From: a virus
Virus record (IMG/VR): IMGVR_UViG_3300038701_001532
Span: 1 to 33,953 of that record
Strand: one strand, 5' to 3'
DNA length: 33,953 nucleotides
Shown here: in pieces, positions 8,753 to 33,953 of the stretch
How the letters are laid out: the number at the start of each line of letters is the position of its first letter
Position numbering within the stretch: position 1 is the first letter of the stretch
The notes under the pieces: generated by a model
Databases searched by the model: none
Told to the model about the DNA's origin: nothing
What the model saw: only the letters and a program-made list of their open reading frames with translations
Program-made: the position numbers and the translations under genes

Positions 8753-8989
8753 ATGCCCCGCTTACTAATAGCAGCCAACTATATTTTGAACCTTGCCAGA
8801 TTCGCGGCTCTGTGGGCTGTTGTGGGCGCTCTGTCAGGTTTTTTGATTGGCCTTGTCCTAACCTTCTATTTTCTTGAACCCTATACGTGGGAGTCTGCAC
8901 GCTTTGGCCTTGAGTTCGGTTTCTTGTTTGGCCTTGGTTTTTGGCTCTCATGCGATGCTTATTTTTTAGCTAAGAGATTCAATTCTTGA
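8753..8989 (+). CDS. Small membrane protein (2-3 TM helices)
   Basis: 78-aa ORF. Hydrophobic segments include ARFAALWAVVGALSGFLIGLVLTFYFL and FGLEFGFLFGLGFWL. Confidence 0.6.
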   Translation: MPRLLIAANYILNLARFAALWAVVGALSGFLIGLVLTFYFLEPYTWESARFGLEFGFLFGLGFWLSCDAYFLAKRFNS

Positions 8990-9015
8990 CATAGATCTAT
9001 TTTTCTTTATCCTTG

Positions 9016-9043
9016 TTGGCTCGGCAATTCAGCCGAATATAAT
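9016..9043 (+). promoter_or_regulatory. Sigma70-type promoter dedicated to the double-glycine peptide gene
   Basis: TTGGCT (9016..9021), a 16-nt spacer, then a perfect TATAAT (9038..9043). An AAGGAA RBS is at 9055..9060 and the ATG is at 9069. Confidence 0.55.
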
Positions 9044-9068
9044 AATAAGCAAACAAGGAAATACGGAC

Positions 9069-9341
9069 ATGAAAGAGTTAGCAACAACAGATCTTAATCT
9101 TATCAGTGGCGGCAATCCAGCCTTAGCCGTGATTGAGGGGGCTGCACTGTTTATCGCAATTCCTGAGATTGGCGGGGCAATCGGGCAAGATTGGAGTTAC
9201 CCCACGATAGGCGCGGGGCTAGGTGAGTTTGTCTTTGATGTTACCCACGGCGACCAGCTAGGCCAAATGACTTATGATGCGTCAGATTTCGGTCTGTCTT
9301 ATATACCGTCAGCGTTCCCTAATGAATACCCTCATTGGTAA
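9069..9341 (+). CDS. Peptide precursor with a double-glycine (bacteriocin/microcin-type) leader
   Basis: 90-aa ORF. The first 15 aa, MKELATTDLNLISGG, fit the double-glycine leader consensus: L at -12, acidic at -8, L at -7, I at -4 and GG at -2/-1. The predicted 75-aa mature part has a Gly/Ala-rich hydrophobic N-half (NPALAVIEGAALFIAIPEIGGAIG) and no Cys. Confidence 0.6.
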   Translation: MKELATTDLNLISGGNPALAVIEGAALFIAIPEIGGAIGQDWSYPTIGAGLGEFVFDVTHGDQLGQMTYDASDFGLSYIPSAFPNEYPHW

Positions 9342-9622
9342 AAGTAGGTTGCTTGGACTAGTAGCGCCAAGCTAAGCGCCAAGGCTACAGGGAGGCCGTA
9401 TTTAACGATTCGGCTTTCTTGTACTGCCTTACTTGATAATCCCAAATATACCGGGTCTTGGCCTCTCAGAGCCGCCCTAAGCGCCATGATAGCCAGCACA
9501 ACACAGGTTACTTTAATCTCTTTGATTCCGATGATAACAAGTCCACATGCAAGCCATGTTTTTAAAGTGGTATCAGCGAACAGCTTTACATCACCGAGCC
9601 AGTTGTTTGTTAATGTCTTCAT
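9332..9622 (-). CDS. Small polytopic membrane protein (candidate immunity protein; inference only)
   Basis: The ATG at 9622 is preceded by an AGGAG RBS. The track ORF starts at 9646, inside the upstream gene. It has 3 hydrophobic segments (WLACGLVIIGI, VTCVVLAIMALRAAL, YGLPVALALSLALLVQATYF). Its 3' end overlaps the double-glycine peptide gene by 10 nt. Confidence 0.6.
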   Translation of the reverse strand: MKTLTNNWLGDVKLFADTTLKTWLACGLVIIGIKEIKVTCVVLAIMALRAALRGQDPVYLGLSSKAVQESRIVKYGLPVALALSLALLVQATYFYQ

Positions 9623-9635
9623 GTTTGATAGTCTC

Positions 9636-9902
9636 CTAATCATCATCTAATAAAAATATACTTTTCAATTTTTCGTAACCTTCGGCCTTTGCTTTCAGCA
9701 TATCATATTTGTGCTTGGTTATATTTAATATCTTGAGGTCTTCAAAAGTGCCGCTGTCATCCACCTTTAGGCTAAACGGGCTTAGGTTAGATGATTGGAA
9801 TACCTTAAAATCTGTTTTTTGAATTGAAGCCGCCAGCAAGTGCATTCTGTAATTTAGTAAATCGACGACCTCTTTTAAATACTTGACTTGTGTTTCACTC
9901 AT
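9636..9902 (-). CDS. Hypothetical protein
   Basis: 88-aa ORF with a 4-nt overlap with the upstream gene (operon coupling). No motif recognised. Confidence 0.6.
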   Translation of the reverse strand: MSETQVKYLKEVVDLLNYRMHLLAASIQKTDFKVFQSSNLSPFSLKVDDSGTFEDLKILNITKHKYDMLKAKAEGYEKLKSIFLLDDD

Positions 9903-10363
9903 CTTTTACCTGCCTCTAGCACTGGTAAACCGGCTTCAGTTGGTATGTAAATCACTTGATTACCTTGATGCAGTTTATCAATCCACAAGTATCTGAGATA
10001 GCTTTCATTGTCTCTTAACGAACTGCCAATGATGCGGTTAGCTTCAGCGACACCTTTTGCGCGTTCAATTTCAACTTGTGCCAGTGCCTTTGCTGCTTCA
10101 GCCTTTGCGTTCGCATCAGCGATCTGTATTTTACGATCCCACTCAGCGAGCATTAACCTTTTTTTACCCTCAATTTCTTTTATTCTAATGTCTGATATTT
10201 CCGTGGTTTCATAGGTTGTAAACTTTTGCTTTGATGCGAACCTTTCAAACTTATGAAGCGACCAGTTAAAGCCAAACAACATGCCGGTAAATAGAAGGCA
10301 ACCGGCCAAAACTATAGAAGTCCAAACCAATATAAATTGTAACTTGTTTTCAGTCTCTAGCAT
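9899..10363 (-). CDS. Membrane-anchored protein carrying only the C-terminal coiled-coil part of SPFH/prohibitin-family proteins
   Basis: 154-aa ORF with an N-terminal TM helix (FILVWTSIVLAGCLLFTGMLFGF). An Ala-rich coiled coil is followed by ERAKGVAEANRIIGSSLRDNESYLRYLWIDKL...VIYIPTEAGLPVL, which resembles the C-terminal segment of band-7/prohibitin proteins. The SPFH core appears to be absent. Confidence 0.5.
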   Translation of the reverse strand: MLETENKLQFILVWTSIVLAGCLLFTGMLFGFNWSLHKFERFASKQKFTTYETTEISDIRIKEIEGKKRLMLAEWDRKIQIADANAKAEAAKALAQVEIERAKGVAEANRIIGSSLRDNESYLRYLWIDKLHQGNQVIYIPTEAGLPVLEAGKR

Positions 10364-14838: not shown

Positions 14839-14868
14839 TTATCATTTGTTATCATTTGTTATCATTTG
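14839..14868. repeat. Three perfect tandem copies of TTATCATTTG
   Basis: 14839..14848, 14849..14858 and 14859..14868 are identical. The last unit covers the stop codon of the 14862..15128 ORF. Confidence 0.85.
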
Positions 14869-15128
14869 CCAAAGCATGAGCAATGCCACCACTTACGCCC
14901 ACGCTTTTTGCTTTCTTGTTTATCTTGCACTGATTCAACGTCGGTTTTGGTTATGCCGTATTCCCCTTCGATCTTAAACTTATGGGTTATGGTTTGATTG
15001 TGGTTATGGCTGTTTATGGTTTCATGCACATCAAGCTTGGTCGCTGTGTGCTCTGCATCAACAACCGGCTTTAACTCTTTTATAGCTGCCTGTGCTACAG
15101 CTGCCACCAATGGCGCACCTTCTATCAT
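14862..15128 (-). CDS. Hypothetical protein in moron position between the lysis genes and the att-like region
   Basis: 88-aa ORF with a strong GGGGG RBS 6 nt upstream. It has a His-rich centre (SHNHNQTITH) and a basic Cys-containing tail (KKRGRKWWHCSCFGK). Confidence 0.6.
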   Translation of the reverse strand: MIEGAPLVAAVAQAAIKELKPVVDAEHTATKLDVHETINSHNHNQTITHKFKIEGEYGITKTDVESVQDKQESKKRGRKWWHCSCFGK

Positions 15129-15609: not shown

Positions 15610-15753
15610 TTAGTAGATGTCCTTATCAGCAACTAAATTATGTAATACCATGCACCAAAACAAGTATTCTAAAATGTCAGGTATAAAATGCGTTGATACC
15701 GTAATGGCAAACGCACATATACCAACAAGTATACTAGTCGCTAGACTCTTCAC
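15610..15753 (-). CDS. Possible small membrane protein (47 aa, GTG start; not in the ORF track)
   Basis: Manual translation gives (V/M)KSLATSILVGICAFAITVSTHFIPDILEYLFWCMVLHNLVADKDIY*. It has one or two hydrophobic helices and fills the gap between the flanking genes exactly. The GTG start overlaps the upstream gene by 20 nt. Speculative. Confidence 0.3.
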   Translation of the reverse strand: MKSLATSILVGICAFAITVSTHFIPDILEYLFWCMVLHNLVADKDIY

Positions 15754-16039
15754 TGTTCGGGCTAAAATCTAAATTAATGGTTCCATCTTCTAAGTTAAAC
15801 TTTTCTTCGATGTGATCCTCGACGTATTCCTCGGCCATTTCTTCGACGTGATTATCATCGCCAAGGACAAATTGCGAGCCTATACCTAGCGCCGCAACAG
15901 CTGCCAATACAATTAACACAATAGATAAGTCGTATAGCTTCATTTTCTCACCCCATGAAAGTTTTAATATAAGATGCATTATCGAACAGATTACAACCGT
16001 TGCCAGAATTATAGCTACACTAAAAATAATACTATTCAT
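15734..16039 (-). CDS. Putative holin (2 TM helices and an acidic C-terminal tail)
   Basis: 101 aa from the ATG at 16039, which overlaps the upstream stop by 8 nt. TM segments are SIIFSVAIILATVVICSIMHLIL and LSIVLIVLAAVAALGIGSQFVL. The C-terminus is strongly acidic. A second in-frame Met (MKLYD) lies just before TM2. Confidence 0.45.
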   Translation of the reverse strand: MNSIIFSVAIILATVVICSIMHLILKLSWGEKMKLYDLSIVLIVLAAVAALGIGSQFVLGDDNHVEEMAEEYVEDHIEEKFNLEDGTINLDFSPNSEESSD

Positions 16040-16508
16040 AATAACCACCCACAAACAGATCCCACAACCTATAAAACCTATCTGGCGTTGCATCACCCTT
16101 GTATGTGTTGTAATGCTCTTTGTAGATGTCCCACATGGCTTTTGCATTGTTATAGTGTGGCAATGGCTCAGGCTTAATCCAAAACTTTAGCCTAGCAATG
16201 CAGATAGATAAGCGAAGATTCCAGACGATCGCCTCAAATGGCGGCATGATTTCAAGATAACACGCACTTAAGATCGTTTCTTTTAAGTCGGTTCGGCGGT
16301 TCAGATAATCAAGCAGATCGTAGTATGTGGCCTTTTCGATCTGGTTAAGACTCAACGCCCCACCGCCCCCAACTTGTTGCAAATAGGTTAGATTGCTCTC
16401 AACCAGAGGTATGATCATGTATAAGTTTTCGGCTGACTTTGACCACATGTTAACCGCTTTAAGCGTGGGTCTAAGCACTAGTTCCCTGTAATGCTTTGGT
16501 TCAATCAT
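16032..16508 (-). CDS. Putative lysozyme-like / lytic transglycosylase-like endolysin
   Basis: 158-aa ORF at the tail/lysis junction. PLVESNL (Glu-Ser) followed by GGGGALSLNQIE resembles the catalytic E-S and GLMQ-type motifs of SLT-fold enzymes. The resemblance was judged by eye only. Confidence 0.4.
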   Translation of the reverse strand: MIEPKHYRELVLRPTLKAVNMWSKSAENLYMIIPLVESNLTYLQQVGGGGALSLNQIEKATYYDLLDYLNRRTDLKETILSACYLEIMPPFEAIVWNLRLSICIARLKFWIKPEPLPHYNNAKAMWDIYKEHYNTYKGDATPDRFYRLWDLFVGGYYE

Positions 16509-33826: not shown

Positions 33827-33953
33827 CCATAACGCAATAGGGGTTTATATGTCTGATAACAAAAACAACGAAAAGGCCAAGATAGCCGAGCAAGTTTTTA
33901 ATGAGCATGTTCTCGCCATTCCTGAGCAACTTTTGCACGCTAAATTTGCCGAA
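33827..33953. repeat. Terminal direct repeat, copy 2 (identical to 1..127)
   Basis: See copy 1. It includes the dam RBS and the first 35 codons. Confidence 0.9.

Follow-up and report, generated by a model that had tools for sequence, protein, structure and literature searches.

A mobile cassette of a double-glycine-leader peptide and a convergent membrane protein in a temperate phage, a candidate microcin-type toxin and immunity pair

We analysed a pair of small convergent genes in a 33,953-nucleotide stretch of viral DNA (IMG/VR record IMGVR_UViG_3300038701_001532; the whole stretch is called the window). One gene encodes a 90-residue peptide beginning with a putative double-glycine (GG) leader, and the other, on the opposite strand, encodes a small membrane protein (Table 1). 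The first-pass annotation of this DNA had described an open reading frame (ORF) of 90 aa whose leader places Leu at −12, an acidic residue (Asp) at −8, Leu at −7, Ile at −4 and Gly-Gly at −2/−1, followed by a 75-aa mature part devoid of Cys, and all of these features can be read from the sequence. The precursor consists of the leader MKELATTDLNLISGG and the predicted mature peptide NPALAVIEGAALFIAIPEIGGAIGQDWSYPTIGAGLGEFVFDVTHGDQLGQMTYDASDFGLSYIPSAFPNEYPHW. The mature peptide has a mass of 7.99 kDa and an isoelectric point (pI) of 4.05, and contains no Cys and no Lys or Arg. Residues 16-39 of the precursor form a hydrophobic segment, a Gly/Ala-rich helix, and family alignments revealed a conserved core, G..GE..F..TH(P/G)(N/D)xLGQMxY..DF, and a conserved tail, SYIPSAFP.E(Y/F)PHW. 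The ribosome-binding site (RBS) AAGGAA is present as annotated, and at each of the eight cassette or family loci compared an AAGGA-type motif precedes the ATG by 6-10 nt. This conservation fixes the start codon of the peptide gene and, with it, the length of the leader. The convergent membrane-protein gene overlaps the 3' end of the peptide gene by 10 nt, again in agreement with the earlier description. Its product (the partner) has 96 residues when counted from MKTL, or 104 if the upstream ATG at 9646 is used, with 2-3 hydrophobic segments in a Kyte-Doolittle scan. The partner gene comes last in a leftward operon (9636-10363, minus strand), and its AGGAGA RBS is overlapped by the stop codon of the upstream 88-aa gene. 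The gene two upstream of the partner encodes a membrane-anchored protein of 154 aa with an SPFH/prohibitin-like C-terminus, which matches phrog_11227 'protease' with E = 8e-37.

The window contains 247 Met-start ORFs of 40-150 aa, and just one of them fits the GG-leader pattern; in 100 shuffled sequences, the mean was 0.01. This position-specific pattern is kept across about 55 homologues that are otherwise 29-66% identical. In 50 distinct leaders of 13-18 aa, Gly occupies −2 without exception and −1 in 94%, with Ala at −1 in the other 6%; Ile or Val is found at −4 in 98% and Ser at −3 in 76%, Leu or Ile is frequent at −7 and −12, and the remaining leader positions vary. Likewise, SGG-NPA is invariant among three close homologues (64-97% identity), and the residues before it vary. 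The GG site, loss of which in homologues had been named as grounds for discarding the leader, is thus retained. The window leader also fits Motif 2, M[KEQI]x[IL]x9G[GAS], of a published screen for class II microcins (PMC12219008). In hhalign comparisons, the family profile matched colicin V (microcin V, MccV; the query was verified by 100% identity to annotated cvaC) with 83.7% probability and a score of 33.7. Shuffling the MccV leader lowered the score to 12.8 ± 2.2, the leader alone scored 26.7, and with the mature part shuffled the score was still 28.6 ± 2.1. These controls indicate that the similarity between the family and MccV comes from the leader alone and depends on the order of its residues.

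Of the 15 NCBIfam models weakly touched by the family, seven are models of GG-leader bacteriocins or pheromones. The best weak match was TIGR03949 (class IIb bacteriocin, lactobin A/cerein 7B family; E = 2e-4), found weakly for 4 of 32 family members and not for the window protein; the window leader gave weak matches to the BlpC and EntF induction-factor models. A search against bacteriocin-type signal models had been proposed as a check. With TIGR01847, a model of this kind, it did not give a significant hit: the window leader was aligned over the full length of the model (positions 1-15 of 15) with 13.1 bits and E = 0.13, below the cut-off of 15.7 bits. At E ≤ 1, three of the 32 family members gave any match to this model. 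An AlphaFold2 model built from 55 sequences had low confidence (pLDDT, the predicted local distance difference test, 59.6; pTM, the predicted template modelling score, 0.24) and gave the leader a short helix of its own (residues 6-12), after which come a break at SGGN and two further helices (17-37 and 44-59). This low-confidence model suggests that the N-terminus is not part of a folded domain, the arrangement that the first-pass annotation had considered incompatible with a leader. By these comparisons, the N-terminus is a double-glycine signal of the MccV type.

A small gene without database annotation could be an ORF that exists by chance, or the GG could be fortuitous in a remnant that has no function. 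The peptide gene, compared with its copy on a chromosome (L027; loci with family members bear L numbers), has a ratio of nonsynonymous to synonymous substitution rates (dN/dS) of 0.057 at a dS of 0.63, indicating strong purifying selection. In addition, the RBS is conserved, the leader pattern is expected by chance 0.01 times per genome, and about 60 homologous clusters exist. The chance-ORF explanation is effectively refuted by these conservation data.

The extent of the family was determined by an exhaustive profile search of 1.84 billion representatives, which returned 35 proteins, and by a second profile search of a collection of 5.8 billion clusters, which added about 25 more, giving a family of about 60 sequence clusters. 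Nearly all members have 68-111 aa, with a leader of 13-18 aa that ends in GG, rarely GA, and is usually followed by NPA, a Gly/Ala-rich hydrophobic helix and the core G..(L)GE..(F/Y)..(T)H P(N/D)xLG(Q/K)M.Y...D(F/Y). The peptide had no match in Pfam, PHROG, PADLOC or the PDB and sub-threshold matches only in NCBIfam; judged by these searches, the family is previously unannotated. No match for the peptide or a subfamily member was found among INPHARED phages and PLSDB plasmids, and scans of viral contigs returned just two IMG/VR contigs with family members. Homology of the mature part to MccV, suggested by the resemblance to YDY..THKPNP and by the hhalign probability given above, was rejected because that score is carried by the leader. 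Mature part against mature MccV scored 12.6, compared with 9.8 ± 2.0 for shuffled sequences, which is no significant similarity. On this comparison, the mature domain forms a separate family and is not homologous to MccV. Two peptide genes stand in tandem on a non-phage contig rich in insertion sequences (IS) (L001; IS66 TnpB and an IS200-type Y1 transposase). The second copy has PG in place of SGG and a frameshift near its 3' end, and is apparently decaying.

The partner, for which Pfam, NCBIfam, PHROG, PADLOC and the PDB contained nothing significant, has few homologues: a profile search of the whole collection returned only eight clusters, and partner homologues adjoin a family peptide in every locus with context examined. 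In seven distinct cassettes, they are convergent with the peptide gene and overlap it by 4-13 nt, which bears out the view of the membrane protein as a conserved partner in phage, plasmid and chromosomal settings. The homologues are 29-78% identical and share P.YLG(L/F)...(I/V)VK(Y/W)(G/T)LP, which corresponds to the conserved P.YLGL...ES.IVKYGLP of the partner, and the peptides of the seven cassettes are 33-91% identical. Divergences of peptide and partner correlate across the cassettes (rho 0.61), and dN/dS values of 0.10-0.19 for the partner indicate purifying selection. Microcin immunity proteins have been described as immediately adjacent proteins of up to 216 aa with transmembrane (TM) helices (PMC12219008), and in architecture the partner fits this description in all seven cassettes, being adjacent and having 72-96 aa and 2-3 TM segments. 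We regard the 96-aa partner as a candidate immunity protein.

The genomic settings of the seven cassettes are listed in Table 1. The nucleotide homology between the window and L027 comprises the cassette and a 3' remnant of the upstream 78-aa gene only, and on the L027 side it stops at a degenerate CRISPR repeat. The L027 cassette (about 970 bp; GC content 41.6%, flanks 35.1%) is flanked on either side by a degenerate repeat, at the trailer end of a type I-F array with 23 repeats (repeat GTTAACCGCCGCACAGGCGGCTTAGAAA). This copy looks like an insertion of phage-derived DNA into the CRISPR array. None of the 21 spacers of the L027/L028 array matched the window or related phage loci. The chromosomal copies L018-L020 have housekeeping flanks, and the circular Rep_3 plasmid (L029/L030) has no exporter gene and carries a second, unrelated GG-leader peptide, a Gly/Ala-rich one of 64 aa (MKELNTFEIKSVSGG followed by YTFGTAAGGALALALGAAGG...). 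Independent mobility of the cassette is shown by the comparison of these loci, and the pair behaves in genomes as is expected of a bacteriocin with its immunity module. The computational evidence for a conserved, mobile cassette made of a GG-leader peptide and a membrane partner is strong.

With moderate confidence, we interpret the two genes as a mobile cassette for a toxin of the class II microcin/bacteriocin type and its immunity protein, carried as accessory cargo by a temperate siphovirus and dependent on an exporter of the host. The 90-aa precursor would be made in the lysogen and processed after Gly15 by a peptidase-containing ATP-binding cassette (ABC) transporter (PCAT) or type I secretion system (T1SS) of the host, and the transporter would export the anionic hydrophobic 75-aa peptide by a route of the membrane fusion protein (MFP)/TolC type. 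The mature peptide would then act on the envelope or inner membrane of related bacteria lacking the cassette, and the convergent 96-aa protein in the inner membrane would protect the producer. The exporter would have to come from elsewhere in the host: as previously noted, Pfam and PHROG scans and a motif screen detected no C39 peptidase, ABC transporter, HlyD or modification enzyme in the window phage. Several distinct GG-leader peptides co-occur with the family in the same islands and plasmid, which is indirect evidence that these bacteria process GG leaders and probably have a machine for processing and exporting such peptides. Export by distant transporters has a precedent in pneumococcal GG peptides, which are exported by the PCATs BlpAB, ComAB and RtgAB (PMC7018657). 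Berkiella genomes are reported to encode a T1SS (ABC, HlyD-family MFP and TolC), linked there to RTX proteins (PMC9803151).

Several observations weigh against this interpretation. No C39, ABC or HlyD gene is present in 33 family loci (317 kb including redundant copies), and a PCAT, whose absence from hosts had been listed as an argument against the idea, was not seen near any family member within the fetched flanks, whereas verified class II microcins are normally clustered with their own PCAT and MFP genes. The Berkiella T1SS is tied to RTX substrates, and neither the Berkiella genome paper nor reviews on T1SS and PCATs contain evidence for or against a catalytic PCAT in these lineages. The window leader scores below the TIGR01847 cut-off (13.1 versus 15.7 bits), and the published microcin regular expression fits just 21-22 of the family's 55 members, as leaders of only 13 aa are frequent. 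For the mature region, homology to a known bacteriocin or microcin could not be demonstrated (Pfam, NCBIfam, PDB, MccV). The convergent, overlapping layout is unusual, since microcin and immunity genes are usually co-directional, and most family members outside the window's clade lack a partner of the 96-aa type. Finally, the L027 cassette is a mosaic, its peptide being 91% identical to that of the window and its partner 78% identical to that of L003 and 58% to that of the window. This mosaic indicates recombination within the cassette and argues against a strict one-to-one or very narrow specificity between peptide and partner.

Among known systems, the closest comparison is microcin V (CvaC/Cvi/CvaAB-TolC), which shares with the window peptide a double-glycine signal of 15 aa in which the hydrophobic residues are spaced alike, an unmodified precursor below 150 aa, a mature part of about 8 kDa and a Gly/Ala-rich hydrophobic region. 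Further features in common with the class IIa microcins of Enterobacteriaceae are an adjacent small polytopic membrane protein and carriage on mobile elements, for the cassette including a small plasmid. In contrast to microcin V, the element and its surroundings lack PCAT and MFP genes, the mature domains share no homology, and the window peptide, which is strongly anionic (pI 4.05), contains neither Cys nor a disulfide; the two genes converge and overlap at their 3' ends instead of running in the same direction. Unlike class IIa microcins, the cassette is carried by a temperate phage, and its genomic relatives are in Legionellales-type (Candidatus Berkiella) metagenome-assembled genomes (MAGs), not in Enterobacteriaceae. 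Class II microcins are unmodified peptides of at most 150 aa with a mature part of about 5-10 kDa; the window peptide is within this range (90 aa, 7.99 kDa) and has a leader as published for the class (PMC12219008), and the clustered PCAT and MFP genes are missing. Because of these missing genes and the lack of homology in the mature part, we did not file the cassette in any described microcin family; by analogy, its nearest functional counterpart would be a class IIa microcin together with the cognate immunity protein.

Gram-positive class II loci with a distant PCAT are similar in having satellite cassettes of GG peptides and immunity proteins and several GG peptides per genome or plasmid. 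They differ in envelope and lineage, and here neither a two-component system nor a transporter was identified and the mature parts lack homology. The horizontally acquired nap island of Neisseria, from a Gram-negative bacterium, likewise combines GG peptides with a small immunity-like protein, a small regulator and a holin-like protein. The nap peptides, however, are short and cationic, at 16-36 aa with a pI of 9-10, and mediate autolysis, and their island has its own C39 peptidase and export channel (PMC11798529), unlike the anionic 75-aa window peptide, which has no linked peptidase.

A recent paper makes the case that class II microcins are common agents of competition between bacteria (PMC12219008), and those described are clustered with exporters and mostly come from Enterobacteriaceae. 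A literature search found no report of phage-borne class II microcins, and survey papers are silent on phages; as coverage was incomplete, this is absence of evidence only. New here are the peptide family, the partner family, the exporter-less convergent cassette, its carriage by phage, mini-plasmid and chromosome, and the pairing with leaderless paralogues described below. If the microcin-type interpretation is correct, temperate phages, a tiny plasmid and chromosomal islands would disseminate a toxin together with its immunity protein, and the pair would rely on an exporter already resident in the host. This would extend lysogenic conversion to microcin-type allelopathy and add new families of peptides and immunity proteins from amoeba-associated gammaproteobacteria, which are little studied and for the most part uncultured. 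The pairing with leaderless paralogues would then offer the testable idea that immunity to membrane-active peptides can evolve from the toxin itself.

Outside the window's clade, the 96-aa-type partner is replaced by other arrangements. In several other phage types (with P22-like portal, Sf6-type terminase or T7-like connector, or ParA-bearing elements), four lineages in all, a GG-leader member adjoins or lies near a leaderless paralogue. These paralogues, of 61 aa in L012 and 66 aa in L031, have a basic hydrophobic N-terminus in place of the GG leader and retain the core motif; hhalign of the family profile with the L012 paralogue gave 95.2% probability. The pair in L005/L024 consists of P0035 and P0012, and in L015/L016 the shorter copy is located about 1 kb upstream. 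The leaderless paralogues may be toxin-derived immunity proteins or antiholin-like partners. A convergent ORF beside the peptide gene in L012-L014 was considered as a partner and rejected, because it encodes a charged protein unrelated to the 96-aa protein.

The main alternative is that the peptide is not exported and that the pair acts on membranes inside the cell, either in conflicts between phage and host or between phages (superinfection exclusion, abortive infection) or in holin/antiholin-like timing of lysis. The N-terminal 15 residues would then be a cytoplasmic cap, the Gly/Ala helix would insert in the inner membrane of the producer, and the partner or leaderless paralogue would modulate it. 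The lack of an exporter linked to any family member and the concentration of the family in phage accessory regions are in line with such a role. Holin/antiholin pairs are likewise small phage membrane proteins, and the two homologous copies in the four phage lineages, which differ only at the N-terminus, recall such pairs; in L031, holin-like and endolysin-like genes are found about 0.4 kb from the pair, and Pfam and PHROG recognised no canonical endolysin or holin in the window. Holins are small TM proteins encoded in the lysis cassette beside the endolysin, and in the window a plausible separate lysis cassette is located 6 kb from the peptide gene; the neighbourhood in L031 leaves some probability of a link to lysis. 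Moreover, holins carry no GG-type leaders, and the cassette persists on a small plasmid and on chromosomes away from phage genes. An intracellular role also leaves unexplained the strict GG-leader pattern and the order-specific similarity to the MccV signal, and no PADLOC model matched. We consider this explanation unlikely.

A more elaborate version of the export-dependent interpretation is phage-encoded allelopathy that hijacks the peptide exporter of the host. Lysogens would kill or disable non-lysogenic relatives, the phage would confer immunity, and in the sister phages the leaderless, membrane-anchored copy of the toxin core would serve as a decoy or dominant-negative immunity factor. 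We regard this full scheme as distinctly unlikely. If it were true, the toxin-core decoy would amount to a new immunity principle for GG-leader peptides, and phages of Legionellales-type intracellular bacteria would be the first known carriers of a microcin system that parasitises an exporter.

In islands of the Berkiella type (Candidatus Berkiella MAGs and related contigs), the family gene is located directly downstream of a small helix-turn-helix (HTH) gene, is preceded by a GG-type small ORF, and has an S24 repressor nearby. Such a neighbourhood would suit a secreted signalling peptide, similar to the ComC/BlpC-type pheromones, that is exported by a host PCAT for communication between cells or between phages and whose sensing or export is modulated by the membrane protein. 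GG leaders are common to pheromones and bacteriocins, and the weak matches to the BlpC and EntF models point in the same direction. On the other hand, known GG-type pheromones are far smaller than this mature peptide of 75 aa with its hydrophobic helix, none of the cassettes is accompanied by a gene for a histidine kinase or a receptor, and an adjoining polytopic protein of 72-96 aa fits an immunity protein and not a sensor. We therefore judge a signalling function quite improbable. The GG-type ORF upstream of the HTH gene (...LKQVSGG|KRSCTIP...DYCQL...) is unrelated to the family, and the family gene is followed by DUF7683, ankyrin-repeat or unannotated genes and an MFS_3 ('transmembrane secretion effector') transporter gene.

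One further class of peptides with GG leaders includes lanthipeptides and other ribosomally synthesised and post-translationally modified peptides (RiPPs), and the window peptide could in principle be the precursor of a RiPP, with enzymes from other loci modifying its core ahead of export through the GG leader. In L023, a different small ORF with a GAG motif (...KKISGAG|KECW...), which is RiPP-like, is located directly upstream of an ATP-grasp gene. The window peptide, however, has no Cys, and no modification enzyme is encoded in the phage or adjoins any cassette. Its 75-aa core is long and conserved throughout like a folded or membrane domain, and leaders of 13-18 aa are short, unlike typical RiPP recognition leaders. 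A RiPP origin is highly improbable.

Table 1. Positions of the features described, in the window unless a locus is named
Feature	Position	Strand	Remark
Peptide ORF, 90 aa	9069-9341	+	leader followed by mature part
Double-glycine leader, 15 codons	9069-9113	+	predicted cleavage after Gly15
Predicted mature peptide, 75 aa, plus stop codon	9114-9341	+	
RBS AAGGAA	9055-9060	+	8 nt before ATG
Partner membrane protein, 96 aa	9332-9622	-	
Overlap of peptide and partner genes	9332-9341		3' ends, 10 nt
Gene two upstream of partner, 154 aa	9899-10363	-	SPFH/prohibitin-like
Promoter-like TTGACA-N16-TATCCT	8986-9013	+	consensus scan; candidate cassette promoter/operator
Palindrome TAGATCTA	8992-8999		within or just after -35 region
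Promoter-like TTGGCT-N16-TATAAT	9016-9043	+	consensus scan
Upstream membrane protein, 78 aa	8753-8989	+	two hydrophobic segments
Nucleotide homology block window/L027	8883-9595		76% over 735 nt, blastn
Cassette	window		temperate phage
Cassette	L002/L003		syntenic phage relative
Cassette	L018-L020		chromosome, flanked by EamA and NhaA-like genes
Cassette	L023		flanked by ATP-grasp and HipA-like genes
Cassette	L025		short contig
Cassette	L027/L028		chromosome, beside type I-F CRISPR-Cas locus
Cassette	L029/L030		circular ~3.9-kb Rep_3 plasmid
L027 cassette span	L027 9347-10369 (L028 9764-10786)		
Degenerate CRISPR repeats	L027 9347-9374 and 10342-10369		
Tandem peptide genes	L001 1053-1325 and 1491-1760		non-phage contig
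Leaderless paralogue	L005 6126-6350		P0035
Leaderless paralogue	L012 9810-9995		L012-L014
Leaderless paralogue	L031 4198-4398		
Leaderless paralogue	L015 8950-9090		L015/L016
Berkiella-type islands	L006 3606-5971; L008 10528-12841		
Other unrelated GG-type small ORFs in same islands/plasmid	L021 1240-1440; L007 9483-9698; L029 2159-2353; L023 932-1123		L029 ORF, the second peptide of the Rep_3 plasmid
Terminal direct repeat, 127 bp	1-127 and 33827-33953		
Candidate lysis cassette	15734-16508	-	6 kb from peptide gene
PHROG 3108 homologue	L031 4837-5298		GWWQMEP motif
Phage protein with polybasic tail	14862-15128	-	
Homologue of the preceding	L012 10317-10595	-	

The 79-nt gap before the peptide gene holds two promoter-like sites, one of which is conserved in related cassettes. 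The conserved site, TTGACA-N16-TATCCT, reaches with its -35 hexamer into the stop codon of the 78-aa gene upstream, has counterparts in L002 (TTGACT...TATCCT) and in the chromosomal L027 (TTGACATAACTC...TATCCT), and is a candidate promoter/operator of the cassette. The palindrome TAGATCTA occurs upstream of the peptide gene in the window, in L002 (at about 860) and in L018 (at about 1380), in three cassettes with peptides just 51-64% identical, and may be an operator. The private promoter proposed in the first-pass annotation, TTGGCT-N16-TATAAT, stood only in part: the hexamers are present, but the pair is not conserved in L002 or L027, and promoter-like hexamers are not enriched in the region (8 found versus 9.7 ± 2.9 in shuffles). 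A moron is an autonomous transcription unit with a promoter and terminator of its own, placed between phage operons and often deviant in base composition. The proposed moron architecture is supported in part at most: the cassette is independently mobile, no terminator-like site was found between the convergent genes, and a deviant GC content had to be rejected as evidence (45.5% versus 43.9% genome-wide, the 68th percentile). The upstream 78-aa gene is kept in the related phage L002, is present as a 3' remnant alone in L027, and is missing from the other cassettes.

The window has direct repeats of 127 bp at its termini, which mark it as a circularly closed assembly and thus as a complete phage genome of about 33.8 kb of unique sequence with a GC content of 43.9%. 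A Pfam scan identified a large terminase (TerL), a portal (DUF4055) and a Mu-F-like protein. Pfam and PHROG annotation further yielded a major head protein, a tape measure protein and lambda-like tail tube proteins, as well as an integrase with arm-binding domain, Erf, SSB, Dam and a ParB-like protein; by this gene content, the phage is of the temperate siphovirus type. TerL is 58% identical to that of Kagunavirus-type siphoviruses of Enterobacteriaceae. No nucleotide match for the genome was found among INPHARED phages, and none for the cassette region or the tail genes among INPHARED phages and PLSDB plasmids; no tRNA genes were found in the window. The only taxonomic anchors are the copies in Berkiella MAGs, the ankyrin- and IS-rich flanks of chromosomal copies and the gammaproteobacterial-type terminase; a single scan of a genome collection returned just two loci, both in Candidatus Berkiella MAGs. 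The likely host range of the cassette is amoeba-associated bacteria of the Legionellales type.

The candidate lysis cassette of the window, without canonical annotation, includes a 158-aa protein of PHROG 3108 (phrog_3108), whose homologue in L031 has a GWWQMEP motif that recalls lytic transglycosylases. Its second member is holin-like, with two TM segments and an acidic tail, and its 101-aa form starts at 16039; elsewhere in the window, Pfam and PHROG recognised no endolysin or holin. The convergent ORF of L012-L014 mentioned above is weakly homologous to the window gene at 14862-15128. Both encode phage proteins of 88-92 aa (31% identity) that end in polybasic Cys-containing tails, KKRGRKWWHCSCFGK in the window and KKKHKGCFANCFKKKKKKG in L012. 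These tails resemble eukaryotic-type membrane-targeting motifs, which would be notable if the phages infect intracellular bacteria.

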